The position numbers and the translations under genes are program-made. A stretch of 49,436 nt of DNA from Aduncisulcus paluster (taxonomy: Eukaryota), in assembly GCA_024181965.1 (NCBI GenBank), contig BQXS01010965.1, positions 1-49,436 of the forward strand, given 5' to 3'. Under the pieces are notes generated by a model. The model ran no database searches. It was not told where the DNA came from and saw only the letters and a list, made by a program, of their open reading frames with translations. Of this stretch, positions 6,493-49,420 are shown one piece after another; position 1 is the stretch's first letter, and each line of letters begins with the position of its first letter.

Positions 6493-6748
6493 AGTGTAGG
6501 ATTTGGATCAGATTACCGCATCTTCGTGGATTGTTTGTAATTTTTCAATTAACTTATCGATCCGCTCCTTCTAGGAGATACTGTGAGTATTTTGAAAGTA
6601 TGCAGGCTGTCTCTTTAGATTTTCAGGTCATTTTAAGGAACGAAATAAGATTATTTTATATTATAAATTTTAAATTATATCATAGATGATAATGAATATT
6701 CCCTTGAAGTAAAAAAAATAACAAATTCACTTTTTGTTCACATTTCGA

Positions 6749-12700: not shown

Positions 12701-15700
12701 GGTATCAAGGATGCTGAGGATTCAGAGGAATAATATTCGTCGGAAGGAAAGAGGGAGTAGTGACAGTTTTGCCATGGATAATTCAGACAACAAGTTCTCA
12801 TCGAGAGACGATGATCTTCTTGCAGATCTAGATGAAGAAATTAGAATGAGAGCGAATGGAGAGCTTGTTAGCGATGAAGAATCTTCATCTCCTGTTCGAT
12901 TCCTCTCAAAAACTCAGATCGGACCAGATACAGGTCTGATTGGAATGTTCGAGAATAGTCTGAGTGAAAAAGATGAGATTAGATTCTATAATCGTTCAGT
13001 TTCTCCACGGCCTGGCTCTGAAGATCCCCCTACTGGATCCTCTGATGGATTTATGTTGTCTGAGAAGTCAGATCTGCCATCTTTTCCTGATTTATATGAT
13101 CCCAATGCTCCCAGACCTGCATCCCCTGGAACCCGCTCTAAGCAACGATTTGAGGAGATTCAAAGGATGAAGGATGAGAAATACGAGCTCATGCGTGACG
13201 TGTGTGAGTTTTCAAGTATTCCAGAATCGCAATTGGGAGAGATTCAATTTTACAATCTGGATATCTCTGATCCCTACTCTGATGAAATGTCCTTGCTTCC
13301 CGGATCAATGACTGGTTCTGATATTTATAGTAACCACAATTGTCTCGACCTCGAGCTGTCAGATCCTCCTCCCTGGGTTGGAGAAGGGAGTGAGTACGAC
13401 TTACTCTCTTTCTCTGATGATGAAGGGAGTTCTGCCCGAGAGAGGGATATTGAACGTCAGACAGCTCTGGGGCATCTCATTCAAGGTGATGCCAAGCCAT
13501 CGAGAAGTTCCAAGAACTTATTGAAGACCTTACTTGGACAGAGTGACGATGATGATGATAAGAATGACTCAGATGTTAGTAGTTCGACAGCTAGAAGATC
13601 GAAGCAGGATTCAGTCCTTGATACTGATAAAGATGCTGACCTTTTACACCAATATAACGATTTATTTGATCGGAATGATGAACTATCCTCAGAATATGAA
13701 TACGAATATGAAGAAATAACAGCGAGTGTGAGTGAAATGGGGAACAAATCGCCCACTCAAAATAACTCTGACGCAGATGAAAGTCCTGTGAGAAAACATC
13801 GAAGAAAACATAAGACAAGAAGAAAGAAACGGGTCAAAAACAAAGCAAAGAGCAAGGAAAAGGCTGCTAAATCTAAATCCATGATTCCTCCGCTGCCGAA
13901 ATGGCTTGTATTAATCATTGTTAAGGGGAAAAGGAAGATAGAATCTAAGAAATGGAGGGGAGTGAGCCAGGAGAAATGGCACAAGTTCGTTGGTTGGAGA
14001 AGGGAGTGAGTACGACTTACTCTCTTTCTCTGATGATGAAGGGAGTTCTGCCCGAGAGAGGGATATTGAACGTCAGACAGCTCTGGGGCATCTCATTCAA
14101 GGTGATGCCAAGCCATCGAGAAGTTCCAAGAACTTATTGAAGACCTTACTTGGACAGAGTGACGATGATGATGATAAGAATGACTCAGATGTTAGTAGTT
14201 CGACAGCTAGAAGATCGAAGCAGGATTCAGTCCTTGATACTGATAAAGATGCTGACCTTTTACACCAATATAACGATTTATTTGATCGGAATGATGAACT
14301 ATCCTCAGAATATGAATACGAATATGAAGAAATAACAGCGAGTGTGAGTGAAATGGGGAACAAATCGCCCACTCAAAATAACTCTGACGCAGATGAAAGT
14401 CCTGTGAGAAAACATCGAAGAAAACATAAGACAAGAAGAAAGAAACGGGTCAAAAACAAAGCAAAGAGCAAGGAAAAGGCTGCTAAATCTAAATCCATGA
14501 TTCCTCCGCTGCCGAAATGGCTTGTATTAATCATTGTTAAGGGGAAAAGGAAGATAGAATCTAAGAAATGGAGGGGAGTGAGCCAGGAGAAATGGCACAA
14601 GTTCGTTGTTCGTAAATCTGGAAGGAGCTGGAGTATCAACTCGAGGAATAGAAAGGTTCGAGAAGAGAAACGGTGGAGAAAAATTGAAGAAAACAAGAAA
14701 ACAAGAGATGAAAATCCAGATATGGTTGTTTCTGGCATCGAATTACTTGGAGGAAAAGGATTTCCATCCATTGTTCCAATAGATTCTTCTCTCTGCGGGT
14801 TGATTTCTCGGTTTAACAGGTATAAATTGCAACAAAAAACGAATCAAATTGAGATGGATTTTATACCTGACAACAAAAAACTTGTGAACAAACATCAAGC
14901 AAAAATTATGTCTCGTCTCGAACAATTTTCTTTGTCTGGATGTGATTCTGTTCATGACGAAGATCCAATGGTTGCTAACATCCCTTGTTTATTCCCGACT
15001 GTGTTCACAACTCATTCGGTTCCCCTCGGATCCAGGGTTCCATCCGCAATCAAACGTCTCCTTAATGATAATTCCTCGCTTCCTTCCGTGTTTGTGTCTC
15101 CATTCACAACATTTAGATTGGAGCCCCTGTTATTTCATGCACACACTCTTGAACCACCGTCATATCTCACGAGGACTCAGTACCACGAATATAAGAAAAT
15201 GGAAAACGATGGGTTCAGTGTAATGACGGTTGGAGAACGGCGAGAGTTGAAGAAGGGAACTGTCACGGGATTGGGTGGAATTGATCCAAAGCCTTCGACT
15301 GCTGCTGTGTCAAGGAAGTCATCTAAGTGGAATGCCTTCCGCCAAGGTCTTGGAACCAGTGGTAATTCAAGTTTTGATAGTGATAACATGCCAAGCAGTC
15401 GGTCTACCATTACGTCACGATCTTCCACAAGCAGGGCTGGATTGGAGCCCTCAACATCCAAGTCCAGTGCCTCCTCCCTACTTCGCATAGTGGAGACTCC
15501 GTCTTCCATCTCTCACATATTTGATCACCACTCTTTCTTGGATAATAATGTGCTTCGGTTGGGAAGAGTAACGAGGAAATGTCTCAGTCTGGATATTGGT
15601 AGTGATCATATATCTTCTGATAGCTTACTTCAACACTCTCCAGTCTTTTTCAATGGCATTGGTGTTGATGGAACATTGGATGAATCTGGTCACAATGTTG

Positions 15701-18700
15701 CTGGTCGTGAAAGAGTTCCTCTGGGGTCACGGATGCACTCAAGAAGAGGAAGCGATGGTGGAATATTCTGCCAGTTTCTTGTTGAGCAGGTCATCTTTGA
15801 GGAGAGAGAGAGAAAAGAGCGAAAACAAGAGAAAGTACTTGGGATGAACGCAGTGCCAATGAACAATGGGTATGAACATGAAGAGAAAGAACCTAATGAC
15901 CAATTGACATCATTTCAGAAGATTCCAGAACCTTTTCTTTCAAGCGAAGAACTTGACAAGAATCTCCTGCCTCTCCCTGTCGTTGCGTCGTATCCATTGG
16001 ACACTTTATTTGGAATCCTTGCCGATCACTCTCACGATGAAAAAGACGAAGACAGCGATGAGACTTCAACCACAAGTGTTACAATGTCTCAGGAGGTCCA
16101 TCTTGCCGCGCCAAGTTACAATGCCCATTCCTTCCAGGATCAGGACAACCCATTGTCAAGCAGGGATGAAAAATCTTTACGAGCAGTTATCTCTTCTGCG
16201 AGACCCTCGGGTGTGGATGATCTTCCGACTCAAAACGCAGGACAAGTTCCTCTTGCTCCGATTTTAAAGCTCCGTCTGGAACTTACCTTGATGTACGACG
16301 AACATATCTTTGATGAAGTTATCGCAAAGAAAGTGTTTAAGGTTATCGCAAAGAATCCAGGTCCCCCTGTCAAGAAGAACTTGCCCATAACAGGCAGAGG
16401 GGTGACTTTTGTGAAGGATAGGAGTAGTACATCCAGACCGCAAATCATTGAAAAAGAGGAGCTTTGGACACATGTCATTAATTTGTCATTCTATCGTATT
16501 GTTCAAGAGCGATCTAATCCCATTTCTAATTATATTCCATTTATTCCCCTTCGAAACCGAAATCAAAATGGATCTTCTGATTCAATGGATCCCTCAAGAC
16601 GTCGTTCTTCTGTTTCAAGGCCTTCCAATGATTTATTCTCAAAATTATCCGAAAATAGAATCGGTATTGAAGAACCTATTCTCGTTTGCGTTGGTGATTT
16701 CTCCGACTCCCCTCCTTCACCTGCTTCCTTTCCCTGTATTCCCCATGTGTGTCGTATTGAGCGAGGTCAGATTGGATTTGTGGACATGATTGCAAGGGAA
16801 ACATGGATGAGTGATCCAGGTATTTGTCTTATGAATCCCCTCAAGGAAATTGTGAGTGAAGTTGTGAACAATGTTCTGGTCAAAAGGAAACGAAAGAAGG
16901 CTGAATTGGAAGATATTGGGATCCCTGATGGTCCGAATGCTCCTCTTGTATTAATTGAGGAAGAAAAAGACATGGAAAGTATTTCAGAGGAAGAAACGAA
17001 GAAATCAGTTGATCATGACTCGAATAATAGGGATATAAATGAGGATAAAATGGACTCTAAGAGAGATGGAACTACGTCCAAGGTTCATTCATTCAACTTA
17101 TCTATTCCTGTTCCTTCCTCTTCCCATCTTATCGCAGAAAGAAATATGTCGGCCAGGAAAGAGGGTCATCGAACAACATCTCGGGCTGCATTCAAACGAA
17201 TCATTGGATTCCCTGTTGATGACATTCAGGCCTCATCCAGCGATAATATTCGTTCTGTGTCAGAGGTTGTGAAACAAATGTTACGGTCACCTGAAGAACT
17301 CGACGCAAATTCCGTTGAATCGTACTTGGAATTTACTTCTTCAGAACACATGCAAATGTTAATTTCTCTGATCGAAAAGCTCCAAGGAATGACCTGGAGA
17401 GATGTGTGGGCCATTGGTCAACAGGTAGAACAACAAACTTCTCAGAAAGGGATTAAAAGGACTGATATTTCAAGATCAGCAAGAACAAAGTCTGGATCAT
17501 CCCAATTGCAGAGGGATTTCAGTAAGTTCCAGGAATGGGAGAAAATGAGTGAGGGAATACTGGTTCTTCCGCCTCAAATATCTTTGTCTGGACAGCCTGA
17601 AGCTCCTTTATTCCTCCTCCAGGTCACATTTTTACTGTTTCTCTCCAAATTCGTGGAAGCTCAGTATTCATTGCCAAACCGAGGAATGTTCCTGTTTGAA
17701 GATTCTAAATTTAGCTCATCTTTCTCCTCTATTTATAGTTTGGATTCATCAATTCCATTTAATGGACCATTATTGCTTGGAATGCCCTCTCTTGAGACGA
17801 TCAATGCATCCACATCTAAACTAATATTATCTCAAATTCGTGTTGAAAGTGTTGTGAGTTCCTTTAGAAAGAAGCTTGAGGAACAAGCCAGGCGATTTGA
17901 GGTAGAACGTCTTCGTGCGCGATCGAGATATTTACTCTCTAAATGTGGATATCTCAATGATAAAGAATTTGGATATCTCATGACAAGTTATAAATGGATG
18001 ATTCGTAGCGTATTTAGTACCATTTCTTTGAGGAAACATCTATTCTTATCCCAAGAAAGAGAGATTCAATTACAACAAAAGGCTCAAAAGGAAGGGCATG
18101 TTTTACCTCAAATCTTCTCTCAGCGTTCAGTTGATAAACTCTCGCTTCAAATTGCTGCACTATGGCAACTCCCATCCTTTTTGTTTATCTGTGAATGCAT
18201 CACTGGAAATGGAAGGAGTGGAAATGGAGGAAGTATTCCAGACACCTCTGAGCTGAAGAAGAAGAGGAACGAGGAATGGAGAATCCAAATGGCATTCGAT
18301 GCAAAGCATGGCAGTGCTAGAAAAGACACTGACAAAATTCCACCCCAATCCCTTGCCTCTCCATCAGGTCTGCCAGATAGAAGGGCTTCTGAAGCTGATA
18401 TTGTCTCCTTGCAGGAAAGCACGCCGAGGACACTCTGCAAGACTCTACGAGAGAAGGAAATCGATCGTATTACTGCTCGAATGGGATGTTTGTTGACAAT
18501 CCAGAACGATTATCTCACTTCACAAGCGGAAGTACCTTTGGCGAGTTCACTTGCTTCATTCTCACCCTCTTCAATTCCAATCCATACTTCGCATGCCCTC
18601 ACTTTCCTTGGACTTGTCGTGCGTGGGGCAAGACAGTTCGGTGAGAGGGGTACGATTAGTCCTCTTGACCTTGCAGTTGCCAACGGATATACTGTGCCTC

Positions 18701-21700
18701 AGGACCACCAAGAAATGGACGCAAAGAAAAGGAAAGAGGCAAAGAAACGTCGCAAAGAGCGTAAAAAAATTCTCAAGATGAAGAATGGCCCTAAATCATC
18801 CTCTTCAAAACCGACAACCAAGAAAGAATTTAGTTGCCCTGTCAATCCTTCAATAGATTCATATGTATTGACTGTTATCACTGAAGATGACTCTCAAGAT
18901 GATGGTGAGGGAACTAAGACGGCGGAGAAAGGAGAAACGTCAAAAGGGGAGGATTCTGATAAACATTCCGAGGAAGATGAAGAGGAAGAGGAAGAGGAAG
19001 AAGAGGATGAGATCAACCAAGATCTTATTTCAGAAGACAAGAACAATTCTGATGATTTAATTGATAATATTAATTCTCCATTGGAATCAGAGTCTTCTGA
19101 TTTTGTTGATAAGACAAAGAAAAAACCCCGTGTACCAACCATTCCTCTCCCTCCTTCACTTCCCTTGGGTTCCGTTCGACCAAGAGCAATGTCTGTTCTC
19201 ATCCAGGGCTCTATCTCGAAACGAACTACCCCTTCTCAGAATTTATTCCCGTCCGAGAAATATAAATATTCACCTCCACCTCCTCCAAAACACCATCTTT
19301 TATCCTCATCTTATATGTCACTTGTCAAGCGAACTCATGATTTGATGTTATGTGAGCTTGAACTTCGAATATTCCTTGCCAAAGTATTGGCTGAGAATGT
19401 CCGTCAACACATACATAAGGCCCCTGCAGATCTTGAGTATGTTCCAATCGAGGACGATAAGGAAAATGACCTGGTGAAGCCCTCGGATCAACAAAGCCAT
19501 AAACCTCTTTCTAAGGAACTTGTAAATGCGTTGGAGACCAAGAAATCGAGGAAGAGCAAACGCCGTATTTCTTGGAAATTCTCTGGAACTGTGAACCGTC
19601 AAAGTCGTTCACATTCGAGGTCGGGGTCAGTAACCTCTGTAACGAGCGACACTAATGAACCTAAACCAAAAATGACTCCTGTTTATTCCTCCATCGATTT
19701 CATCTTTCCCAAGACTTTACCCTCGATGGAAGAGAATTTCGTAGAGTTCTGTGTGTCCAAGATATCTGAAAACCAGCATCGGCAGTTGTATTACCTTCCC
19801 TTTCGGTACGGGACCTCCATCACAGGTACCATGAACATGTCCACGATGGAACATGAGGAAATTGATGAATTGGATGATATTTATAACGAAGAGAAGTATG
19901 ATAAGGAAAAGAAACGTTTCCAGGGTAAGAATATGGTTGAACTGGAGGAAGAAATTGCATGGGCTGCATGGGAGGAGAAGAAAAGGAAGAGATCTGAACG
20001 ACTCTCTGCAAGAAAAAGGAGGAAAAGCGTCGACAGTTCCCCAAGATCTCCTCATTCACCAAGTAGCAGTAGCAACAGTAACATTCCTCTTTCTCCTTCG
20101 ATCAGCCCTGCTCAAGTTGATGACCTTCCTCATATTCCCTTGTTGGTGCAGACATCTCCTCAAGGGGTTGAAGAGATTGCTCCTCTTCCTCTTGCTGCAG
20201 AGTTTGATGATGGATTGGGCGATGATCCGATGTTAACTCCACCCTCGAAGATCCCATCAATTTCTACACTGCCATTTGATGTTCAACAAAAAAGAATCAT
20301 CGGTGACGCCATGGCCAACGGCAGGATGGGTGCTTTTAGTGCTTATCTGGATGATTTTAGACTTCATCACAGTTCTATTCTGTTAAATAAGATAATTCTT
20401 GAAGAAATGAGGGCCGAGGAAAGGAAAGCTGAGGAAGAGATGGAGTTAAAAATTCTACAAAGTGTGACTAAGGCTGCTAAAGTTGGAATTAATCCCCTTT
20501 TAATCTCTCAAGGTCTTTTTGTCACCCAGGGAATTGATATCACAGATATTGAAAAGGAGCAAACAACCTCCATTGATGATCTTAACCTTGGGGGCTACAG
20601 CCTTGTGATATCTGATTCCCCTGTGGAAATGGGAGAGGAGAATGAAGAACCCGAAACTCCACGAAACACAAATCCCAAATCCTCTGAAATTACCGTGTTA
20701 TCCGAGTTTACTCCGAATGTGAGTGCTCTTCTTCATGATATTTCGACCAATCCCCTTGATGATACATTGACTGATGGCACCCCCTGTCACTCAAGGACTG
20801 TGTTTGGAACAGAAGAATCATTCTTCTCCGGTAAGACAGAAAGAGATGTTGATGAATTGAGTCTTTTAGCTACTCCCATTGTTTTGAGTGCTGGAGGAAT
20901 CTTGTCTGGTGTTGGGACTGAATGTAGAGCTAATCGGAAGGCATTCAAGGATGTTGATGAGTTTGTTGCAAAGGCATCCGATAGTGGATATCGACTCGAT
21001 CCATCCCATCCACTGTTCCACAATGATGGCCATGTCTTTGTGAAGCTTGAACAAGCAGAATTGCAACGTAAAAGGCAAGAAGAGGAGAGATTATTGTTGG
21101 AATTGGAAGCTCAGAAAGAGAAAGATCGCTTCAAGCAATCTCTTCAACTCTCTTCGGCTTCACTTTCATCAATTGAACTTCCAATTTCAAGAGATATCCT
21201 ATCTGCTCGGGTTGTATCTAAATCAAAGAATATCGGTGATAAAAACTCCCTTATCTCGATGTCGGCTTCATTAGCTATAAAAAGCAGTCGAGGTCCATCA
21301 GAATCGGTCAAAAGCACTCCTCGACTTGATTTAACATCTACAACTCCCGTCCGAGTCAAGGCTAGAACCTCTTCTTCATCGAAATTTATTAATGGATTGA
21401 GTGGAGAAAAGGTATCTGTTCATCGGGGTACATTTGGGGAGAGAACCACGCCTCTCAGAGGACTTTCTATGAAGGATTTACTTGATCCCATCACTCCATC
21501 CAAACCGATTGGTTCAGAAAAGACGGATAATGCAATAATTTCAGATGGAATCGATCATAAGACTCCCAAGGTGCTTGATAATGGTACAGATCAGTCTATT
21601 TCTGGTCACAAGAGTCCAAGAGATGATGCGATTGATTCCGGATCTTTTGTAACTCAACCTTCGTTCGGTTTTTCACTCCGAACATCGAAACGATCTCATG

Positions 21701-22200
21701 CCCGTAAACTTCAGTCGTTACGTTCGAGAACTCAATCAATCCGTAATCAAGTTGGTAGATTTGGGAGAAAAGTCAGAGAGATGAGCGATGTGATTGGCGG
21801 AGATCCCATGTCAAGAAAAAGCTCAACGATAGAGAAACCATCAATTGCAAAACATGGGCGTTCTTCTTCTGCATTATCCACATCGTCTTCAGTGTCTGAA
21901 GCAAGCAAGAGGGCAAAAAGTAAGTTAGAACTCGGACCAAAAAAACAAATGGCTGCAATCGAAGATGGTATTCGAAAGAAACTCACACAGGATCCTTTGC
22001 AAGGGAGATATCAGTATTTATTGGATAACAAGGATCGAAGCTCCATTATTTTGGCTGGAAGTACACGTCAAGATGGTGTGCATAGTAGTTTGGCGACGTA
22101 TAAAAGAGAAAAAGCTCCCAGTATTGATGCTCTTGGAATGTCTAGGCGAACCAAGCCTAGCGGACCTCCTGGATTGTTGCTACGAAGTCCCGTGAAATAG
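6749..22200 (+). CDS. Giant hypothetical protein (~4,838 aa after collapsing two duplications); N-terminal beta-propeller-like region, then long Ser/acidic/coiled-coil tracts
   Basis: The ORFs 6734-12520, 12441-14009 and 13990-22200 join into one frame when 319 nt (gap plus duplicate) and 616 nt (tandem duplicate) are removed: 15452-935=14517 nt = 4839 codons. WD40-like LIFGLSNG, LLIGYSSG and VVIGHTNG motifs occur in the first ~500 aa. Confidence 0.75.
12178..12795. repeat. 299-bp direct duplication flanking 20-N gap (unmerged contig overlap)
   Basis: 12178-12476 is repeated at 12497-12795 around Ns at 12477-12496. Confidence 0.9.
13377..14608. repeat. 616-bp exact-looking tandem duplication causing a frameshift in the giant ORF
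   Basis: 13377-13992 is repeated at 13993-14608. The ORF track shows identical peptides offset by 616 nt. Confidence 0.9.
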
Positions 22201-22436
22201 AGATTCATTAATGGAAATTTTGATATTTTCTTAGAATAAAGTTGAATATATTGATTTTGGTTGTGATCTATGCCTTTATATTACCGCTATTATGAGATTA
22301 TTATTGATTTAAAAGATTAAATTTCCTTATTTGAGTCAATATACCGACGGGATTATGAAATTAGGTTTTGATTCCAATTAAAAACATATCACAGATTTTA
22401 TTACTCTTATATCCTTTCATATCGATAAATATTTTA

Positions 22437-23438
22437 ATGATACTCCATACTTTAAAAGATTTGACTCCCTTCCAATTCATTTCGGAAGCCAATGACCTTG
22501 TAGACATGATACCTTTTCGTTCTTCAACAACCAAATTTTCTTCCAAAGCAATTAAGGAGGAAGATGTAAAATCTATCTGTCAATTTATTGTAAATTGCCC
22601 TTTTCATGATATGTATGCTATTTTGCTTCGAACGAAAGGTGCTGATATATTTACTGACAAAAAGATTCAAAAAAGTGTGTGGATTAAGGATTCTGCTGAA
22701 ACAATTGTTATTCTTGTTGGTAAACGACATTCTCCCAATTTTATTGCTTCTTGTGGTCTTTTCGGTGAAATGTTATTTTTATACATAGCTAATTTGGGAT
22801 TATCGACGTGTTACACTATTAGTACGAAATTTGATCTTTTATCTGTTCAAAGAGCCCTATATATGTTTAATAGCGATGAAGATATCATTGTGACTTGCAT
22901 GCCTGTAGGATATTCAAGAGATACAGCAGCAGTTGGAAATTTGGATATTAGTTCCTCATCTGCCCCCATTACATTGCGTAGACCAAATCCTCTTGCAGGA
23001 CGGAGGGTACTTGACGATATGCTTCATCCTGATTCTGTTTCTCCCTCTAAATGGGGTTCTCATACAAAATTTCTCCTTATTTTAGCGCGAAAAGCTCCAT
23101 CATATAAGAATTTGCAACCATATTTTTTCAAGGTCTCTCATATGACAGTCCCTCTTTACTCAACAGCTTCTGCCAGGGAAACATATGGGGACGGAATGGA
23201 ACCAATCAGTATTATTGAACTCTATGTTAAATTAGAGCTTCACAAGACATTGGTTAAGAAATCTTCTAAACCTGTTGCAAAAGGATCCGTTCTTCCTGAT
23301 CCAAGACTTGATGCTGGAATTTGTGCAAGTCACATGTTGCTCGGAGCCTGTACATTCCCAGAAGGTGTTCTTAAAGAGATTGAAATGGGTGATGGAATCA
23401 TCGAACCTCTCCTTAGAATTGTTGTTCGCGAAAAATGA
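22437..23438 (+). CDS. Nitroreductase-family flavoprotein (two-domain, TM1586-like)
   Basis: N-terminal I..RSS..KF....I FMN-binding motif, G..GE...L....LGLSTC, then ARKAPS..N.QP..F and LDAGI...H in the second half. First ATG is at 22437. Confidence 0.75.
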   Translation: MILHTLKDLTPFQFISEANDLVDMIPFRSSTTKFSSKAIKEEDVKSICQFIVNCPFHDMYAILLRTKGADIFTDKKIQKSVWIKDSAETIVILVGKRHSPNFIASCGLFGEMLFLYIANLGLSTCYTISTKFDLLSVQRALYMFNSDEDIIVTCMPVGYSRDTAAVGNLDISSSSAPITLRRPNPLAGRRVLDDMLHPDSVSPSKWGSHTKFLLILARKAPSYKNLQPYFFKVSHMTVPLYSTASARETYGDGMEPISIIELYVKLELHKTLVKKSSKPVAKGSVLPDPRLDAGICASHMLLGACTFPEGVLKEIEMGDGIIEPLLRIVVREK

Positions 23439-32681: not shown

Positions 32682-33518
32682 TTAGTGACATGCCCATACC
32701 ATTTGAACACAATCTCCATGCTCAGGACAGACCACAATTTGACAGGCGCCGAGATCACCGAACATATAGTCGAGACAATCATTGCTCTCCATATGATAGA
32801 CCAATTCGGAAGCAGCACCACAAACAGGGCATTCTCGAAAATCAACTCCTTGTATCCAATCAGCATATCCACAAATGCCATCACCAACATACTCAAATTT
32901 GGCCTCAAGACCTTCGAAGAGGTAGTCACTCCATTCATCTATCACATCATCAGAGGTAGTCTCAAAAAATTCAGTACTATTTGGATAACAGATACAAGGT
33001 GACCACTCAATGACTTTTCTGCACCTTATGCTTTCTACAGTGGTAGGATAAACGGATATAGCAGTTTCGGCTGGGGGAGTCACAAGACGACAAACATACT
33101 CTGGATCATCAGCCCCACCTTCACGTAATGATCCACGGCACTCATCTTCCAAGGAACATTTAAACAATTGAATAAGTGAGCCCGCAGAAAGGGAGGCAGG
33201 CCTGATATCTTCAGGAATATCACTAACACTTAGTTGAAAAAAGAAACAAAGGGGAATATTATCATGTGGACATACTGGATATGGGTGTTGTTCACTGATA
33301 TATGGCCTTTTACCACCATATTTAGAGCAGAGATGATCCGTGTCTTCTTCATCAGGGATATCTGGAGAAATCATTGCAGAATATTTGATTTTTTCAAATG
33401 GTTTTATGGCTTGGAATATTGATTGAAGTTCAGAGTCAGTAGGAGCTTCCTCACCTAAAATCTCTTCTAAGATGGGAAGAGTCAATCCATCAGGAAATTC
33501 AGGAACAATAGTTGGCAT
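32682..33518 (-). CDS. DUF1963 (YwqG-like) domain protein, bacterial type
   Basis: SKYGG.P......P.CP....L.FFFQL....IP...G.LIQLF.C, then G..DWIQG....CPVCG....LV...ES.D.L.YMFGD.G...I..CPEH......WAC, matching bacterial DUF1963 proteins as recalled. Confidence 0.75.
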   Translation of the reverse strand: MPTIVPEFPDGLTLPILEEILGEEAPTDSELQSIFQAIKPFEKIKYSAMISPDIPDEEDTDHLCSKYGGKRPYISEQHPYPVCPHDNIPLCFFFQLSVSDIPEDIRPASLSAGSLIQLFKCSLEDECRGSLREGGADDPEYVCRLVTPPAETAISVYPTTVESIRCRKVIEWSPCICYPNSTEFFETTSDDVIDEWSDYLFEGLEAKFEYVGDGICGYADWIQGVDFRECPVCGAASELVYHMESNDCLDYMFGDLGACQIVVCPEHGDCVQMVWACH

Positions 33519-33906
33519 ATATTGTAATAATTAATATTTTGAATGCAATGATAAAGAAGGTGGCTGCAAAAATGAACCATTAGAGCGAAATTGATTGTTG
33601 TTGACTTTTGCTGATTCATTCTGCATTTAAAATTAAGTTTCAATACATTTTCAAATGAAATATTTCATTTTTAATCCGATCTTACATTAAAATAGAACAT
33701 ATATGTGGCAAAGCTCCTAATTGCAAACAAAAGGCGATTTCCGTTCAATATGGGACTTAATCTACTCACTATGAGAGACATTTTAATTCATTGTTACTAC
33801 TAGGGTTTTCATGGATAATTTTTGTGTTGATATATGCACTGCTTCATTTCACAGCCAGAAATTCTGTCATTGCTCCACTTTATAAAGTTTTAAAATTTTT
33901 GCACAA

Positions 33907-33984
33907 AGAAATGGATCTTTCAAAGAAAGTATGTTAATTTTTAATTGTTTGGCCATGAATTTGGTTTAGAATAATGGATGTAGC
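33907..33984 (+). repeat. Copy B of 78-nt dispersed repeat: orphan ATG micro-exon (MDLSKK) + GTATGT donor upstream of viperin
   Basis: About 90% identical to 25414-25491. ATG at 33911, donor at 33929. Confidence 0.85.
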
Positions 33985-34188
33985 CAAATATTTCTACTTC
34001 ACCTTTCTTGCAAATAATTAACTATATTGTCCGGAAAATTTTTTCTTTTTTTATCAATTTGCCTATCTAGACTTTCTAATTCTTATTATATTAAGGTACG
34101 AGGATTAAGGTCCTCACTTAGCTGTGCCCCAAATTTCCAGGATAGATTTTTTTTTCTTCTCGTATTTTTTGCAACCCCCACTATTATT

Positions 34189-35289
34189 ATGTCAAAAATA
34201 AGTATAAATCCAACTTTGATTCCCATTCCCACCCAATTCCCTTCTTCCCAACCATCTCGAGACCTGCCTCTTGATATTTCTGATATTGAAGACTCAGTAA
34301 GTTCCATTATTGAGGAAGAATTGTATAAACTTCCTTGTCCCGCCATAAATTATCATGTGTGTCGAGTTTGTAATTACCGATGCAAGTTTTGTTTCCATCG
34401 GGCAGCCAAAAAGATCAGAGACTCCAAGTCAAGCTCATTGTATCCTCTCTCTGACAGTGAGATTTATCGCGGATTAGAGATCCTCAAAGCTGCCTCTGGA
34501 GAAAAATTAAATATTGCTGGAGGAGAACCCTCTCTTTGGAGTATTGAGAAGTTGGTCTTTGTCATTTCATCGGCTAAGAAGATTGGATTTAAATGCGTTA
34601 GCATTATCTCCAATGTATATAGCTTTAAAAAAGAAGATCTGCCAGTTCTTAAGGATGCAGGACTGGACATTCTTGGTATCTCTCTCCATTCAAGTTCTGA
34701 TGCCGGATGTGAGGAAATTGGGTATTATCATGCTAAATACGCAAGATCCCCAGTTGGAACTCGCGCCAGTGGAACTATCTCCCATATAAAAGAGATTTGT
34801 GCTGCTGCACATGAATGTGGTCTTCATTTGAAGATAAACACAACTCTCTGTGTTCCCAATGCTAAAACATTTAAATCTTTAGCTGAATTTGTGGTTAAGG
34901 ACCTTCAGCCATGTCGCTGGAAGATTTTCCAGGCCATTCCCCTTGGATCCAACGAGGAAGAAGGTGTCGAGAAGGCATTCGTCGATGAAGAGGAGAAGAT
35001 CTTATTCCTTACTGAGAAAGAATACAACAAGGCCGTGGATCCTGTTGTCGCTAAATACCCTGAATCTAAATTTGGCATCAAAATTATCAAAGAATCCTCA
35101 AAAATTATGAGGAATTCTTATGTTGTTCTTGATGAACTTATGAGACCGATTGATAGCTCTACAGGAGCAAAAATGCCCCAGCAATCCATTTTAGACGAAG
35201 GAGGCATTGAAAAAGCAATGAGAAAAGTTGTTTTCGATGGTGAGTCTTTTAAGGAAAGGAGTGGGAATTATTTCCAGGATTTGAAATAA
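34189..35289 (+). CDS. RSAD2: Viperin (RSAD2-like) radical SAM antiviral ddhNTP synthase homologue
   Basis: INYHVCRVCNYRCKFCFH (CxxxCxxC), KLNIAGGEP, VSIISN, LDILGIS, LKINT, RWKIFQ, ES...MRNSY.VLDE.MR, SILD.G and FD...F..R.G.Y, all collinear with vertebrate viperin motifs. First ATG is at 34189. Confidence 0.92.
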   Translation: MSKISINPTLIPIPTQFPSSQPSRDLPLDISDIEDSVSSIIEEELYKLPCPAINYHVCRVCNYRCKFCFHRAAKKIRDSKSSSLYPLSDSEIYRGLEILKAASGEKLNIAGGEPSLWSIEKLVFVISSAKKIGFKCVSIISNVYSFKKEDLPVLKDAGLDILGISLHSSSDAGCEEIGYYHAKYARSPVGTRASGTISHIKEICAAAHECGLHLKINTTLCVPNAKTFKSLAEFVVKDLQPCRWKIFQAIPLGSNEEEGVEKAFVDEEEKILFLTEKEYNKAVDPVVAKYPESKFGIKIIKESSKIMRNSYVVLDELMRPIDSSTGAKMPQQSILDEGGIEKAMRKVVFDGESFKERSGNYFQDLK

Positions 35290-35627: not shown

Positions 35628-38066
35628 TCACCGAACACACTGTGGAACACCAGACCAATGGAGTTTTTTATCATCTTCCTGATTTGGAATATGTGTATCT
35701 TCCTCATCTTTCTCAGTAGTATCTATTTTTGGACAAAAATATCGGTGTCCTCCGAGACCATTTTTTCGAGGAATATGAATGATTGTCATTTTCCCCAGAT
35801 CAATATCATACGGAACTCTAACCTCAAAATGGGTATCTAAATCTGGCAATTCTATACGTTTTGCATCAAAATGTCCTCCTTTAGACGTTATTTCCTTCAC
35901 AGACATCACAGAATCGTTAGAAACAATATTTTTAACTTGAGATATTTTGGATTTTTCAACTAATTCCATTTCATCCTCTTCTTCATCCTTTGTAGAATCA
36001 ATATGAATGATCCGAGTATCTATTCCTTCATTCTTCATGGTACTTTTCGAAACAGGATAATCCCCAGAGAATTGTGAGACAGACTTAGGAGTCTTTTTCA
36101 CAGGATATGTATCAGATGGAACATCACCAAATCTTCGTTTCCCATAATCCCCCTGAAGAGATGTGGGGAGAGATGTTTGGTCATTTAAGTCAGGAGAGAT
36201 GTCATCGGAAATATCAACAATCTCAATCTGAGAGGATCCATCAGAGTCAGATGCAAGCGAAGAGATCGAATTCGAATGAATTGGGTGCTTTCTTTTGCCA
36301 TGGAGTGGATCTGTTATTCTTTCGATCTCTGAAGACATCTCCATTCCATCTCTGATATCCTTTTTAAGGTGTCTTCTTTTCATACAATGTGAAATAATTT
36401 CCTGATCAATCAATTCAGAAACACAAGAATGAAATGAAGGTGATATTTGAGCCGCATCTGGCTTTGAAAACGCATCTAGAATATTACCACGAGGAATTAT
36501 AGGTTTTGATGTAACTGTTGATGGAAGTTTCTGACTCAAAATATCGTGAACATCAACCCATTCAACTCCATCCATATGTGGTTCACTTTCATTCTGTGTA
36601 ATGTCTCTATCACAATCTTTCTCAATATCTATTTTGGGAATACTATATTTAGAGGGAGTATCTCCTTTCCTCTCCTCCTCATCTTCAATATCGATGATAA
36701 TAGCACTATCACAAGAAACATGTTCTGTTATTTTAGCTTTTGCTGTATAAAATTCAAGAAGAGATTGCTGAATTTTGGGATCAAACTCAGGGTTTCGTGA
36801 CAGTTCTGGTTCAAATTTAGACTCAGAATTTGAACAAGATATTCCAATTTCAGATTTCTTTTTCTTTTCATCTAACATTGACTTATTCTTCTTTGCTTCT
36901 TTATCGGCGAGTTTTTTGCGCCTTTGAGATTCTTTCCTCTTATTTTTTTGAACTATTTTCATAAGTTTCACGCTTTCTTCTTTGGACTCTATTGTTGTTC
37001 CCTTTTCTTTCAATCCTTCAGTAAATTCAGGCCCATCTATTTTTACCCAAATATTTTTGCATGTCCAGCAAGGATCAGGCCAATTATTTTTAGCTCTTTT
37101 TAGTATCTTTCCGCATCCTTTGCATCTCCATCTATGAACCCTATAATAATCTACTTCACCATGAAAATTATGATATACTGTTATTGTTGATCCTGTTAAT
37201 CTATTAATTTGATGCATTCTTGCCTGAAATAAAGATCCATGTGGATCTTCTTCTCGAATACCCAAAACAAAAAAATCAGCGTGAATCTACATTCAATATC
37301 ATAAGAATACAAAAGATATATTAAATAAATAAGAAATAACGGAATAAAGGATGGAGAAAACCCATAGATGAAAAAAATGAAAAATTCAAATGNNNNNNNN
37401 NNNNNNNNNNNNCCAGCAAGGATCAGGCCAATTATTTTTAGCTCTTTTTAGTATCTTTCCGCATCCTTTGCATCTCCATCTATGAACCCTATAATAATCT
37501 ACTTCACCATTAAAATTATGATATACTGTTATTGTTGATCCTGTTAATCTATTAATTTGATGCATTCTTGCCTGAAATAAAGATCCATGTGGATCTTCTT
37601 CTCGAATACCCAAAACAAAAAAATCAGCGTGAATCTACATTCAATATCATAAGAATACAAAAGATATATTAAATAAATAAGAAATAACGGAATAAAGGAT
37701 GGAGAAAACCCATAGATGAAAAAAATGAAAAATTCAAATGAAACATACCATTTCATGGAGTAAAGTATTAACTAAATCACTAAATGGTCTATATTTTAAT
37801 AATGGTTCAGATAACCTTATCTTAACTTCATAAGAAGTGAGAGATCCTCGATATTGACATATTCCAGCACATAAAGTCATTTTAGGTGACCAATCTACAG
37901 TAACAGCACCCAATCTAGATCCAAATAAGGCCTTTTGAAAATAAGAAAACATGCTATGAATGGATTGTCCTTGAAAAGAAGTCAGCGGGGGAAAATAAGA
38001 AGTTCCAGAGGATATATCCCTTCCAAAAGGCATTTTGTTATATTTAATGTTTATATTACGGATCAT
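35628..38066 (-). CDS. SPRTN: SprT-family DNA-dependent metalloprotease, Spartan/SPRTN-like (2 exons, ~650 aa)
   Basis: Exon 1 runs from 38066 (or 38033) to 37749, with WSPKMTLCAGIC, IRLSEPLLKYRP and TLLHEM. The intron 37748-37635 is GTATGT...TAG. Exon 2 begins IHADFFV...DPHG..F...M..IN..TG..ITVYHNF..EVD.YR.H.WRC. HEXXH is split by the intron. The exon 2 start is duplicated across the gap (intact copy 37286-35628). Confidence 0.9.
37065..37740. repeat. 328-bp direct duplication flanking 20-N gap, one SNP between copies
   Basis: 37065-37392 vs 37413-37740; G37163 vs T37511. Confidence 0.9.
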
Positions 38067-45694: not shown

Positions 45695-48600
45695 TTACAT
45701 GGCTTCCAATACAAAACGATGTCCCAAAGCATCACGAAGGGCATGCAAGAATCTATATCTATGTCTCCAGCTATCGAACATCAATTGCCAGGAGACAAGA
45801 CCAAGTGTGGGTGAATGGAAAAGCAAAAAACATATTGGCCTCTCCTTTTCAGTGATCTGAGCCTTTAAAAACTCTTCCACAAGGTGACATCTTTCGATAG
45901 AGAAGATTGGAGTTGTAACGGTCTTCCACTGAGCACATGAGGGGAATCGGGTGTAATCCACGGACATCAAGAAGATCCTTCTTTCACTCACCATCACAAC
46001 TCTATTCACGACCTCAATATCCTCAGGACCCTGGAAAGACTCATGTTCCAAGAAAATACTACGAACGGTTGGATGAGATGCAGAAATGGGAATATATACC
46101 ATTGAAAGGGAGACAATGTTAACTTTGGATGCAGAAAGAGAACCAGATACAGCAGAACCAGAAGCCATAGACATGACATCAAGTTCTTTGAAATATCCAG
46201 AAATAGCCCTGTCAACTTCACGATTGAAGGCAATGGTTTCAGTCTCAACATGGAAATGAGCAGATATATCCTTGCCTATTTCCTTCGAATAGAATAGATT
46301 AATGGCACTCCTGAATACACCCTCAATCTCTTCAGTGGTCGTAGCATCCCTGGTCAACACAATCAATGGAGGACAGGCTGTTCCAAATTCGAATCGAATG
46401 CCCTGGCCTCTGAGAATAACAACCATTTGAGAGAGTTGGGAAAGACTCCATGTATTGATCTTCTTCAAATAAGACTTCTCGTTGTAAGGTTTGAAGATAT
46501 CATTTCTGTGGGGGTCCTCGACTTGGTATATCTTATCGGTCGAGAGAATAATTCCACCATACCGAATTTCAGTGGAGTGGGGATCATCGTAGAAGTTTAC
46601 ACTCACACGCCAGAATCCAAGCAGCCGCTCAGTAATAGTCGAGAATAACTTTCGACAGAACATACCTTCCATATGTTCATTGAATCGAGAAGTGTAAGAC
46701 AAATATTTGCTTCGTTCTTTTTCGGGGATAGTTGTCGCAAGGGCATCTTCACGATCTACAGATACACCGTACTTGCTCACAGATTTGGCACCATTCAAAT
46801 TCTCTGCAACATTCCTCAGTGTGGCACGGTCAGCCACAGCCACAACGGCAGCAGCGGCAGCGATAGCCATTGGTCCTAATTCATCCTCACTCCATTCCTC
46901 TCTATCATCCATGGTGGAGAAACCAGTCAATTGGGACAGAGCAGATCCAAGAGCATTCTGAAGGGATTTCACAACGGTATTATCGAGCTTCTGATCCTCT
47001 TTCTCGGCTTCTTCAAGATATTTCTCCAAGTCTTCCTTTTCTTCCTGTTCACGTTGTTGGAGCTCCTTCTGTTTCTTCTCTTGCTCCTCTTCTTTCTTTC
47101 TCTTGGCAGCCTCATCGTCAGTGAAGACACGAACATTCTCAAGAACAGAATCATCATACTCTGAATCCTCCAATTCTGCATCAACATTGAAATCGAACAT
47201 TTCATCTTCTTCATCCTTTTTCCGCATCTCTTCCTCGAGCTGTTGTTTCACTCTCTCTTCAATCTCCCCTGCTTTTAATGTCTCAGTTTCTTCCCCAATA
47301 AGTTGTTTTTGGGCCTCTTTCTCAAGAATTTCCCTCATTTTCTCCTTCATTTGTTCTCTCTCGAGCCCAGCATCAACGAGAGTGAGAGAAACAGGCTGAG
47401 CCGTCTGAATGGCACGCTTCAAGCAAATGGGATCACTCACACAGACACCATCTCGCTTGCTGTTCAGCATATTTGTGGCCAGAGACAAAAGATTGAACTT
47501 AAAGTCTCGATCAGAGTCAGCCACATAAGGAAGAGAATGCGGACGTGATATAATGAACTTGTAACGTTCGGCATGGGATAAATGCTGCACGACAAGAGAG
47601 GAGGTTGCCCCAGCTTCGTATTCTTTCACAGCAGACTCATAGTCAGGATCTTCACCATAACTCTGCTTGAAGATAGACTCACACTCGATTTGGAATGTTA
47701 GGTCATGCCATTTCTTGGATTCCTGACTTGGGAGAGGAGGCTCAGGATAAGATGGGAGAAGCATCCGCTTCCGCTTACATATGACATCTCGCATTGTTAT
47801 CTCACTCACATTCAATTGTCTACGAAGTTCTTCGTTCAGTTTAAGCTGCTTCTCTTTCTCCTCTGCATCTTCGCGTTCAATCTTGGCCTTATGCTCTTCG
47901 TCACGCTTCTTCCATTCGATCAAGGCCTTCTCCTTCTGCACAGAGAGCATCAATTTCCTCTTTTCCTTCTCCTCCACCTCGATATCTTTCCACTCCTTCG
48001 CTTGTTTTTCCCGCATTCGCAACCATTTCCTCTTTGAACGGAACTCAAGACGACGGATCTCCTCTTCAACACGCTGCTTACGACCGTTTAGTCTCCCGTC
48101 CATCTCCTCTGTCTCAATCCACTCGGAGGGATCAATGATCCTCACCCCTGATATTTTGCAGGGAGAAGGAGAAGAGAAGAAGGAAGCAGAATGACACCCA
48201 ACACAGTGGGGCTTACGGTTCGGCAAGGAAATGAATGAAGAAGAACAGAGCATACAGAAACACTCTTGTTTGTGGGTGTCCTTGGGCGATTTGTGCTCAA
48301 GAGAAGAAGAAATACGATGGGGAATGATTATACGCTTGTCATCAAGTTGAGACATTAGCTCACCATCATCTGCATCTTTCCCTTCTTCTTCTCTATCAAG
48401 TCCTTGTTCACGGGCTCTAGCATTGGCGTGGATCTTATCTTGTCTCATTTTGTCTTCAATGTCACGCTCAGCTTCGAGTTTCTCGATTCGAAGATCCCCT
48501 CGCTGCGTGGTAGCTATGGGATATTTTGCTGCCAAATAAGGTTGGAGGATACTCAGAATCTCTCCAACACTGCTGGTTCCACCAACTTCATCCTTGACAC

Positions 48601-49420
48601 TAAAGAACAGGGTCGACACACAAAACGGAGTCATGTCAAGGATATCTTCAGCGTCAAGCCCCCAGAACATGTCAGAAGGATGAGGAGTCACATTGAAAGG
48701 AAGAGAAGCATCGATAACAACCTCTGGCTCAGATTCAGACTTATCTTCATCATCAGAGTTCTCAGGTTCTTCCTTCTGCTCTTCGACCGAGGGCTCAGGT
48801 GTTGGATCTGGACGTTCGAAAAGACCAGATGATTCTTCCTCTTCAGCTTGGACCTCTTCCTCTTCCTCTTCCTCTTCTTCAACCGACGCACGAATATCTG
48901 CTTCATACTGGGCATGCCTCTCTCTCTCTTCTCTCTTCCATTCCCGTTCTCTCTTCTGCTCTTCGTCCTGCTCTTTCCTCAGTCTCTCAAGTTGCCGTTC
49001 TTTCTCTTCCTCTCTCTCTCGCTGTTCGGCATCATCTTCTCCCTGTGTATCAAAATACTCCCCTCTTTCTTCTGCGTGTTTCCTTCGCATCTCTCTCTCT
49101 TCTTCGCGAACTTTCAGATTTCTTTCCATTTCTTTACGAAGAGTCTCACGAACCTCAAGACGACGTTCAGTCTGAGAACGTCTGAATTTCAGGTATCTTC
49201 TACGTGTTTCTTCCTGCAATTCCCACGAATAGGCACAATCAGGACATGTGAACCAGAACACAAGCTCCACTGCTCTGTAAATACCGTTATCGTCATCATA
49301 TTGGGGCAATAATATACAATCCAATGCGGATAACCATGTCTTCCTTTCTATCACCCCATTTAGATCTCGCTGAATGATGAGATCTTGCTCAGGAAGGATA
49401 TCTATTGTCACTTCTTCCAT
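45695..49420 (-). CDS. Large coiled-coil/acidic protein with Cys cluster and C-terminal PH-like domains (STK11IP/nischarin C-terminus-like); may extend beyond window
   Basis: 1241-aa ORF whose frame stays open to the window edge. Contains C.LCS..F.......C..C.S, IILSTDKIYQVE and LSQLSQMVVILRGQGIRFEF, which resemble STK11IP/nischarin C-terminal regions. The family call is tentative. Confidence 0.6.
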   Translation of the reverse strand: MEEVTIDILPEQDLIIQRDLNGVIERKTWLSALDCILLPQYDDDNGIYRAVELVFWFTCPDCAYSWELQEETRRRYLKFRRSQTERRLEVRETLRKEMERNLKVREEEREMRRKHAEERGEYFDTQGEDDAEQREREEEKERQLERLRKEQDEEQKREREWKREERERHAQYEADIRASVEEEEEEEEEVQAEEEESSGLFERPDPTPEPSVEEQKEEPENSDDEDKSESEPEVVIDASLPFNVTPHPSDMFWGLDAEDILDMTPFCVSTLFFSVKDEVGGTSSVGEILSILQPYLAAKYPIATTQRGDLRIEKLEAERDIEDKMRQDKIHANARAREQGLDREEEGKDADDGELMSQLDDKRIIIPHRISSSLEHKSPKDTHKQECFCMLCSSSFISLPNRKPHCVGCHSASFFSSPSPCKISGVRIIDPSEWIETEEMDGRLNGRKQRVEEEIRRLEFRSKRKWLRMREKQAKEWKDIEVEEKEKRKLMLSVQKEKALIEWKKRDEEHKAKIEREDAEEKEKQLKLNEELRRQLNVSEITMRDVICKRKRMLLPSYPEPPLPSQESKKWHDLTFQIECESIFKQSYGEDPDYESAVKEYEAGATSSLVVQHLSHAERYKFIISRPHSLPYVADSDRDFKFNLLSLATNMLNSKRDGVCVSDPICLKRAIQTAQPVSLTLVDAGLEREQMKEKMREILEKEAQKQLIGEETETLKAGEIEERVKQQLEEEMRKKDEEDEMFDFNVDAELEDSEYDDSVLENVRVFTDDEAAKRKKEEEQEKKQKELQQREQEEKEDLEKYLEEAEKEDQKLDNTVVKSLQNALGSALSQLTGFSTMDDREEWSEDELGPMAIAAAAAVVAVADRATLRNVAENLNGAKSVSKYGVSVDREDALATTIPEKERSKYLSYTSRFNEHMEGMFCRKLFSTITERLLGFWRVSVNFYDDPHSTEIRYGGIILSTDKIYQVEDPHRNDIFKPYNEKSYLKKINTWSLSQLSQMVVILRGQGIRFEFGTACPPLIVLTRDATTTEEIEGVFRSAINLFYSKEIGKDISAHFHVETETIAFNREVDRAISGYFKELDVMSMASGSAVSGSLSASKVNIVSLSMVYIPISASHPTVRSIFLEHESFQGPEDIEVVNRVVMVSERRIFLMSVDYTRFPSCAQWKTVTTPIFSIERCHLVEEFLKAQITEKERPICFLLFHSPTLGLVSWQLMFDSWRHRYRFLHALRDALGHRFVLEAM

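Follow-up and report, generated by a model that had tools for sequence, protein, structure and literature searches.

The 49,436-nucleotide contig BQXS01010965.1 (assembly GCA_024181965.1, Aduncisulcus paluster), which we analyzed at its full length and refer to here as the window, carries at positions 34189 to 35289 of the forward strand a gene for a radical S-adenosylmethionine (SAM) protein, P0001. By sequence, fold and position in a tree, P0001 belongs to the viperin family. Judging from its residues, we consider it probable that P0001 is an active synthase of 3'-deoxy-3',4'-didehydro-nucleoside triphosphates (ddhNTPs) in which the corner of the active site that holds SAM has been rebuilt.

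An initial annotation, made from the letters of the window, had claimed a full viperin scaffold with a list of motifs, and all of these motifs were found, in the order and spacing described, in the 366-residue product of an intact open reading frame (ORF). Besides the motifs in the feature list below, these are NYH (residues 54-56), SNV (141-143), KIN (215-217), RWK (243-245), SY (310-311) and RSGNY (357-361). No in-frame ATG precedes position 34189, whether the leader is read as spliced or as unspliced, and the GC content of the coding sequence (0.398) compares with 0.391 for the window. The residue counts given here and below come from a MAFFT alignment of 120 viperin sequences, and mouse numbering was taken from the alignment of P0001 to 5vsl. 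The features of the coding sequence are as follows.

34189 to 35289, forward strand: coding sequence of the viperin-family radical SAM protein P0001; single exon, ATG to TAA with the stop codon included, 366 amino acids.
34189 to 34338, forward strand: N-terminal tail, residues 1-50, predicted to be disordered; predicted local distance difference test (pLDDT) score 44-54 over residues 1-40.
34282 to 34296, forward strand: DIEDS, residues 32-36, a match to the pentapeptide of the cytosolic iron-sulfur assembly (CIA) targeting complex; pLDDT ∼50; the homologue P0002 has DIEDG at the aligned place.
34369 to 34392, forward strand: CNYRCKFC, the radical SAM [4Fe-4S] site with C61, C65 and C68; Cys in 119, 119 and 120 of 120 homologues.
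34519 to 34530, forward strand: GGEP SAM-binding motif, residues 111-114, in 120/120; K106 (mouse K120) lies just upstream.
34681 to 34692, forward strand: SLHS, residues 165-168, with S165 kept and the near-invariant Asp (D in 115/120 in the alignment) replaced by His167.
34717 to 34773, forward strand: IGY and a lengthened loop, residues 177-195 including R186, at the place of the vertebrate IGR-GQGKK loop; modeled with pLDDT ∼96.
34831 to 34923, forward strand: K215/N217 and R243/W244/K245, triphosphate- and SAM-site residues (mouse K220, N222, R245 and K247), in 116-120 of 120.
35146 to 35172, forward strand: beta-8 loop PIDSSTGAK, residues 320-328, with S323 at the mouse C314 position and K328 at the mouse K319 position in the alignment.
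35257 to 35286, forward strand: RSGNY clamp (R357 in 117/120, Y361 in 87/120) and the five-residue tail FQDLK.

Profile searches placed P0001 among radical SAM proteins (Pfam Radical_SAM, E 3.2e-17) and, within these, among viperins, with matches to NCBIfam NF038283 viperin_w_prok (E 4.1e-45, 154.1 bits) and to the PADLOC pVip profile (E 1.5e-42). These matches lie well outside what chance would give. Nine distinct viperin sequences of solved structure in the Protein Data Bank (PDB) matched at E values from 7.4e-29 to 2.9e-22, compared with 0.03 for MoaA, and the MoaA profile scored P0001 at 54.3 bits against a cut-off of 284, which is 100 bits under the viperin models. An AlphaFold2 model built on the 120 homologues reached a pLDDT of 85.6 and a predicted template modeling score of 0.83, with low confidence only at residues 1-48, 71-80 and 254-264. 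When this model was searched with Foldseek, the 16 viperin chains listed matched at E 8e-24 to 3e-17 with template modeling scores normalized to the target (TMt) of 0.82-0.88, and MoaA at 2e-10 with a TMt of 0.62; the top structures were 9DFW, 6Q2Q, 6Q2P, 7N7H, 7N7I and 5VSL (E 8e-24 to 3e-19). Structure prediction, proposed as a check in the initial annotation, thus gave the viperin fold, a partial barrel that the C-terminal extension closes, and one closer to viperin than to MoaA.

MoaA requires a second, C-terminal cluster ligated by cysteines. The last cysteine of P0001 is C242, and a C-terminal cysteine set for such a cluster is absent. In a tree of 76 rows P0001 falls among the viperins and does not group with the MoaA row, an outgroup on a branch of length 10; this separation follows from rooting on that one row, so that the distinction from MoaA rests mainly on the gaps in score and fold. 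The claim that P0001 is a viperin and not a MoaA was borne out by these gaps in the profile, PDB and Foldseek comparisons, with the tree also placing it among viperins. That P0001 is instead MoaA or another non-viperin radical SAM enzyme has practically no chance of being true: the matches in that direction are weak (54 bits against the cut-off of 284; Foldseek 2e-10), whereas the viperin models are 100 bits ahead, the PDB matches compare as 1e-29 to 0.03 and the TMt values as 0.87 to 0.62, and no cysteine follows C242.

The part of the active site that binds the substrate is conserved. Among the 120 homologues, N54 of P0001 is kept in 119, H56 and K106 in 107 each, and GGEP and S165 in all 120; the corresponding numbers are 116 for K215, 120 for N217, 119 for R243, 120 for K245, 118 for E302, 119 for Y311, 117 for R357 and 87 for Y361. 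All triphosphate ligands (mouse K120, K220, R245, K247, R347 and Y351), together with N77/H79 and Y302, are thereby retained. In the human enzyme K119, K219, R244, R346 and Y350 have been reported as phosphate ligands, and the RxxxY clamp as essential in both human and fungal enzymes (bioRxiv 10.64898/2026.09.10.750538). The change from SNG to SNV is mild, since the position of residue 143 is Gly in 107/120 and another residue in 13/120. Close relatives of P0001 are few: against 1.84 billion representative proteins just 8 matched at E ≤1e-30 and 264 at ≤1e-10, and P0002 alone is close, at 52-55% identity.

The SAM corner differs from that of other viperins at two positions. The Asp of SxDS is D in 115/120 homologues and H in 4/120, and P0001 has His167; the position that follows the invariant Gly of IGR holds R in 115/120 and Y or F in 4/120, and P0001 has Y179. 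The pair of His and Tyr or Phe is confined in the alignment to P0001, P0002, P0003 (from Dysnectes) and P0037. Searching 5.8 billion proteins with a profile brought up no further protein with the His/aromatic pair beyond these four, and 29 of 29 further homologues keep the GR and the Asp (one of them has Glu). In all four proteins an Arg follows 1-7 residues downstream (GFR, GYR, GY-YHAKYA-R and GF-YHASNE-R), so that the change can be read as an aromatic residue, with a short loop in addition in P0001 and P0002, inserted between the Gly and the Arg.

In P0001 the aromatic residue is followed by about 7-10 extra residues, and four alignments split two to two over this region: MAFFT with 120 sequences and hhalign put Y179 on the Arg position, and the HMMER pairwise alignment and MAFFT with 12 sequences put R186 there. 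The initial annotation had described a change from IGR to IGY with an insertion of about 10 amino acids; the remodeling and lengthening stood, and the alignments were divided over Y179 or R186 as the counterpart of the Arg. More generally, the deviations from human viperin that it had listed are all present, and SLHS and IGY are truly rare; SxDS/IGR had not been singled out in that list, and the beta-8 loop and the tail lacking a terminal Trp proved ordinary.

S180 and R194 of mouse viperin form hydrogen bonds with S-adenosylhomocysteine (SAH), according to a paper citing Fenwick 2017. Asp182, two residues from S180 along the strand, would face the same corner and pair with R194, and on this view of Asp182-R194 pairing the His/aromatic pair may be understood as two compensating changes that rebuilt the corner where the SAM carboxylate is held. 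The covariation of the His with the aromatic residue carries no statistical weight, because it goes back to a single evolutionary event. The lengthened loop of P0001 sits at the place of the human Q195GKK loop, which has been reported to contact the reductase CYB5R3 (PMC13592299).

The three proteins that resemble P0001 in the His of SxHS and in the aromatic residue after the invariant Gly differ from it to varying degrees. P0002 has in addition the loop insert and the DIED motif of the N-terminal tail, and it and P0001 also have other inserts in common, near residues 71-85 and within the region 254-290. P0003, from the Dysnectes brevis EukProt set, is only 32-37% identical to P0001, carries a beta-8 loop with Cys and Lys and a C-terminal tail with DIES, and reaches 225 bits with NF038283. 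Both P0002 and P0037 are cut short at the C terminus. As a separate observation, the similarity of P0002 is lost after about residue 347, where a Gly/Pro/Arg-rich end begins; its source gene is probably frame-shifted or cut there.

In the beta-8 loop, Ser at the position of S323 (mouse C314) occurs in 23/120 homologues and Lys at the position of K328 (mouse K319) in 51/120, and the form DSSTGxK is common to P0001 and to a eukaryotic subclade comprising P0010, P0017 and P0018. According to Shomar et al., Lys319 with Cys314 makes a pocket selective for cytidine triphosphate (CTP) that occurs in eukaryotes only, Asn at this place marks promiscuous pockets, and Arg is found with uridine triphosphate (UTP). 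With the K319-type Lys and S323, P0001 comes nearest to the CTP type under these pocket rules, and we expect a pyrimidine substrate, most likely CTP and perhaps also UTP. The suggestion of an altered substrate, which the initial annotation had drawn from the beta-8 loop, is not supported in that form: the mouse K319 Lys is kept, Ser at C314 is shared with other viperins, and DSSTGxK belongs to a eukaryotic subclade.

In the reaction that we propose, a [4Fe-4S] cluster on C61, C65 and C68 would cleave SAM reductively, and the 5'-deoxyadenosyl radical would take H4' from the bound nucleoside triphosphate (NTP). This NTP, most likely CTP and perhaps UTP, would be held by K106, K215, R243, K245, R357 and Y361. 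The product would be a 3'-deoxy-3',4'-didehydro-NTP, predicted to terminate viral RNA synthesis.

We also considered how the cluster would be loaded. The pentapeptide of the CIA targeting complex has been given the consensus D-[IVLM]-E-[DEN]-{charged or large polar}, and in CDKAL1 the signal DIEDI (D12-I16), near the N terminus, occupies the CIAO1-CIAO2B pocket that also takes up the C-terminal tripeptide of RSAD2 (PMC12910081, EMBO J 2026). In viperins, the pentapeptide occurs in the C-terminal tail of 20/151 homologues (shuffled sequences: mean 0.36, maximum 3 of 300), and in the core of 0/137 (shuffle mean 4.4). The carriers in the C-terminal tail are P0006, P0011, P0013, P0015, P0020, P0023, P0027, P0030-P0032, P0041, P0050, P0056, P0057, P0059, P0061, P0068, P0090, P0145 and P0151. 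A terminal tripeptide was found in 14 of the 129 homologues with a recognizable tail, as [LIVM][DES][WF], and in 14/151 of the larger set, as [LIM][DES][WF], and only P0090 has both pentapeptide and tripeptide. On these counts the viperin family seems to alternate between two CIA signals, the C-terminal tripeptide or the pentapeptide.

P0001 has its pentapeptide match, DIEDS, in the N-terminal tail, and DIED is kept at the aligned place in P0001 and P0002 although the flanks differ. Because DIEDS fits the pentapeptide published for the same pocket, Fe-S loading of P0001 probably proceeds through the usual CIA complex by way of this alternative N-terminal signal. The initial annotation was right in that a C-terminal Trp is missing, the protein ending in FQDLK, but this is ordinary: only 14/129 tails end in the tripeptide, and 51/129 tails are no longer than 8 residues. 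Its further suggestion of an altered loading route is not upheld, since the tripeptide is absent but DIEDS fits the alternative signal of the same CIA complex.

The place of P0001 within the family was addressed with trees whose rows were chosen by hand from 155 + 29 proteins and 80 loci, with fragments and near-duplicates left out. Most of the eukaryote-like rows are metagenome proteins; the named ones come from Dysnectes, Seminavis, Pelomyxa, Rhodella, Daldinia, Kalaharituber and Neocallimastix. In the 76-row tree, obtained by a short search, supported by Shimodaira-Hasegawa-like approximate likelihood ratio (SH-aLRT) values only and rooted on the single MoaA row, the four His/aromatic proteins grouped at 94.8 and stood beside the prokaryotes at support 82. 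A tree constrained to hold the four with the 43 eukaryote-like rows had a log-likelihood 27 higher than this free tree (p value of the approximately unbiased test, p-AU, 0.825). A more careful tree of 44 rows without an outgroup gave a three-way split, with supports of 97/94 for the four, 91/81 for the prokaryotes and 94/88 for the eukaryotes. On the evidence of these trees, the four proteins form a distinct lineage within the viperins. The four share FCFH and DE..R with eukaryote-type homologues, and prokaryote-type homologues have FCFA and DP.GR; the use of these motifs as group markers is our reading of the alignments.

Independently of P0001, several eukaryote-type homologues in our set (P0010, P0016-P0018, P0021, P0026 and P0313) are 500-650 amino acids long, with long N-terminal extensions. 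One such long homologue has a CYTH domain (PF01928), in agreement with fusions reported by Shomar et al.

The window is a stretch of eukaryotic chromosome that is poor in introns. Its genes include those for a Rad51-like protein, a SNARE, an SNF2 helicase, BOP1, a glutamyl-tRNA synthetase (GluRS), a protein kinase, an amino-acid transporter and a nitroreductase-like protein, as well as a tRNA-Ile. The named viperin nearest to P0001 is that of Dysnectes brevis, a fornicate, and the best named matches of the neighboring GluRS, at 40-45% identity, are from Carpediemonas (42%), Chilomastix (40%), Trimastix, Hexamita and Giardia muris, with many other eukaryotes at similar scores. The host is thus most likely a metamonad, fornicate-like protist to which nothing closely related is sequenced in the collections searched. 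Where the initial annotation spoke of an anaerobic-type protist, the eukaryotic origin and the metamonad matches agree with it, and the anaerobic type is reasonable, not proven.

Two public sequencing runs of one sample contain the locus, X1 of DNA and X2 taken by guess to be of RNA. Contigs of run X2 join position 33928 directly to 34071, a joint that DNA run X1, from the same sample, does not have. It divides the leader as follows.

33805 to 33928, forward strand: exon 1 of the 5' untranslated region (5'UTR); 33805 is the first base seen in the run X2 contig and not a mapped start.
33929 to 34070, forward strand: 5'UTR intron of 142 nucleotides, GT..AG.
34071 to 34188, forward strand: part of 5'UTR exon 2; the T-run behind 34146 is 2 T longer in both public runs than in the window.

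We read this X2-only GT..AG joint as a probable spliced 5'UTR intron and hence as an indication of transcription, though raw stranded reads would be stronger evidence. The longer T-run is confined to the leader and leaves the coding sequence unaffected. After splicing, a short upstream ORF (MDLSKKTF*) with its ATG at 33911 spans the exon junction (33911-33928 joined to 34071-34079). The contigs of run X2 leave 33668-33751 uncovered, a gap that carries no evidential weight. Because the GC content of the gene matches that of the window, its neighbors include eukaryotic housekeeping genes and its 5'UTR has a GT..AG splice, P0001 is probably encoded by a native nuclear gene of the metamonad host, and this gene is probably transcribed.

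Several observations weigh against an active, native ddhNTP synthase. His167 replaces an Asp kept in nearly all homologues, and the SAH-binding Arg is either lost (if Y179 is its counterpart) or displaced (if R186 is), so that SAM binding or cleavage could be altered. P0001 fails the curated cut-off of NF038283 (154.1 versus 180 bits), which the controls pass (Dysnectes 225, diatom 259, Pelomyxa 207, Neocallimastix 246, fungus 249, and two bacteria 261 and 310); it is also under the TIGR04278 cut-off (129.6 versus 450 bits), although named eukaryotic viperins, too, fall below that one (208-392 bits). Its branch is long, both trees warn of long branches meeting, and without the constraint the 76-row tree places the clade next to the prokaryotes. 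The N-terminal pentapeptide, found in 2/168 homologues (P0001 DIEDS and P0002 DIEDG), does not exceed chance when taken alone (shuffle mean 0.72). The sign of transcription comes from contigs of run X2, whose RNA nature was guessed, and no nucleotide kinase was found among the 20 neighboring ORFs scanned. Part of this could reflect neofunctionalization, whereby P0001 would bind NTP and SAM but the rebuilt corner would alter the chemistry, the reductant or the role, so that the enzyme serves a metabolic or regulatory nucleotide modification and not antiviral defense. The score under the equivalog cut-off, the change at two positions each kept in 115/120, the long branch outside the main eukaryotic clade, the lack of a kinase partner nearby (20 ORFs) and the further inserts shared by P0001 and P0002 would all fit such an enzyme. 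Yet P0001 keeps every ligand of the substrate phosphates together with N54/H56, S310/Y311 and the RxxxY clamp, its beta-8 loop belongs to a type that is common among eukaryotic viperins, and the Dysnectes protein, with the same His/aromatic change, passes the equivalog cut-off; we regard neofunctionalization as unlikely. A catalytically dead relic, or a pseudoenzyme retained for a binding role, would explain the loss of the near-invariant Asp and the possible loss of the SAM-binding Arg, but it is very unlikely in view of the intact ORF, the conserved cluster cysteines, GGEP and active-site ligands, the same motifs in P0002 at 52-55% identity, and a model that is confident through the changed region.

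A further alternative concerns origin only and is compatible with a ddhNTP function: the His/aromatic clade may have entered the fornicates by an old prokaryotic transfer and not descend from the ancestral eukaryotic viperin. The sister position to the prokaryotic group in the free 76-row tree (support 82) and the third lineage between prokaryotes and eukaryotes in the 44-row tree are in line with this, and several such transfers into eukaryotes have been reported by Shomar et al. On the other hand, the eukaryote-constrained tree has the higher likelihood (p-AU 0.825), and P0001 combines the eukaryote-type FCFH, an N-terminal tail, the Lys319-type pocket said by the same authors to be exclusive to eukaryotes and a CIA pentapeptide with native composition and a 5'UTR intron, which makes the transfer distinctly unlikely. 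Going beyond the active ddhNTP synthase that we favor, one may imagine the four-member clade as a deep, fornicate-specific viperin lineage, in which the corner that holds SAM, and that docks the reductase in vertebrates, was rebuilt to suit the low-potential electron donors of anaerobic protists, of the ferredoxin or flavodoxin type, and the Fe-S signal moved to the N-terminal tail, with eukaryotic viperins switching between two CIA signals. We offer this broader picture tentatively, as possible but doubtful.

The remainder of the window yielded observations unrelated to these questions. Its long ORFs otherwise look intron-free. The divergent neighbor of the viperin gene (32682-33518, reverse strand) encodes a DUF1963 (YwqG-like) protein (E 8e-8), and contigs of run X2 extend to 33634, ∼116 nucleotides past the ATG of this gene. 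On the same strand, a 110-residue ORF with an SprT-like domain (37734-38066, E 2.9e-15) lies just upstream of a 545-residue ORF (35628-37265) that is without a Pfam match and has a Cys-x2-Cys ... Cys-x2-Cys stretch near its start; the two may be parts of a single gene for a Spartan-like protease that is interrupted by an intron or a frame change. Very long ORFs without a Pfam match at E 0.001 occupy 6734-12520 (1928 amino acids), 12441-14009 (522) and 13990-22200 (2736) on the forward strand, and since they lie next to each other with slight overlaps, they may belong to a single giant gene (6734-22200); a reverse-strand ORF of 1241 amino acids (45695-49420) likewise has no Pfam match at that threshold. 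At 22368-23438 (forward strand) a TM1586-type nitroreductase-like protein is encoded (E 1.3e-12). Proteins of this family commonly come from bacteria, and the gene could have been acquired laterally, as is typical of anaerobic protists.

Viperin is one of few immune enzymes common to bacteria, archaea and animals. With its occurrence in all eukaryotic supergroups already published, one more protist viperin changes little. Culbertson & Levin report 194 viperin-like proteins in 158 eukaryotic species from all supergroups, and Shomar et al. take the same view of viperins across eukaryotes and tested many enzymes. In the literature searched, we found no description of a viperin from metamonads, Giardia included; the main texts of these two papers name no metamonads, and their supplements may list the Dysnectes protein and Ser/Lys pockets. 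Viperins as a kind are thus already known, and the His/aromatic variant and the N-terminal signal appear to be undescribed within the literature searched. The interest of the present case is that a small metamonad lineage tolerating the loss of the Asp and remodeling of the Arg loop would amount to a natural experiment, showing which features viperin requires at its radical SAM corner. The occurrence of either of two published CIA signals in viperin tails would furthermore tie the evolution of an immune enzyme to Fe-S delivery. Fornicates include Giardia, a carrier of double-stranded RNA viruses, and P0001 is a candidate antiviral effector for fornicate protists.

Among known enzymes, mouse and human RSAD2 (5VSL, 6Q2P and 6Q2Q) resemble P0001 in fold (Foldseek E 1e-22, TMt 0.85-0.87) and in CxxxCxxC, GGEP, S180, the phosphate ligands, N77/H79, Y302, RxxxY and the Lys319 equivalent, all of which P0001 has. 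At ∼28% identity, however, P0001 differs in having His for Asp182, Ser for Cys314 and SNV for SNG, in a remodeled IGR and a lengthened loop in place of the Q195GKK reductase loop of vertebrates, and in possessing the N-terminal DIEDS but neither the C-terminal LDW nor an evident hydrophobic or amphipathic N-terminal helix. The viperin-like enzymes of Trichoderma virens and Nematostella (9DFW, 7N7I and 7N7H) are the best solved matches (7n7h at E 7.4e-29; 9dfw by Foldseek at 7.7e-24). The fungal enzymes are reported to use an Arg for UTP, whereas P0001 has a Lys-type loop and is without the Asp and the canonical IGR.

The prokaryotic viperins (pVips) are also recognizably similar, as shown by the PADLOC pVip match (E 1.5e-42), by 26-33% identity of P0001 to 80 bacterial and archaeal loci and by a similarly short C-terminal tail, but their motifs are FCFA and DP.GRF, their beta-8 loops mostly carry Asn or His, and they form a separate group in the trees. 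MoaA, the guanosine triphosphate (GTP) 3',8-cyclase, is the nearest non-viperin family and has in common with P0001 the radical SAM core and an NTP substrate; P0001 matches it with a TMt of only 0.62 and is without the C-terminal Cys cluster. CDKAL1, finally, offers a parallel for the proposed loading signal: the DIEDS of P0001 fits the same consensus and likewise lies in the flexible N-terminal tail of a radical SAM protein. Whereas the DIEDI of CDKAL1 has been reported to bind CIAO1-CIAO2B (PMC12910081), the DIEDS of P0001 is a putative signal by its match to the consensus.

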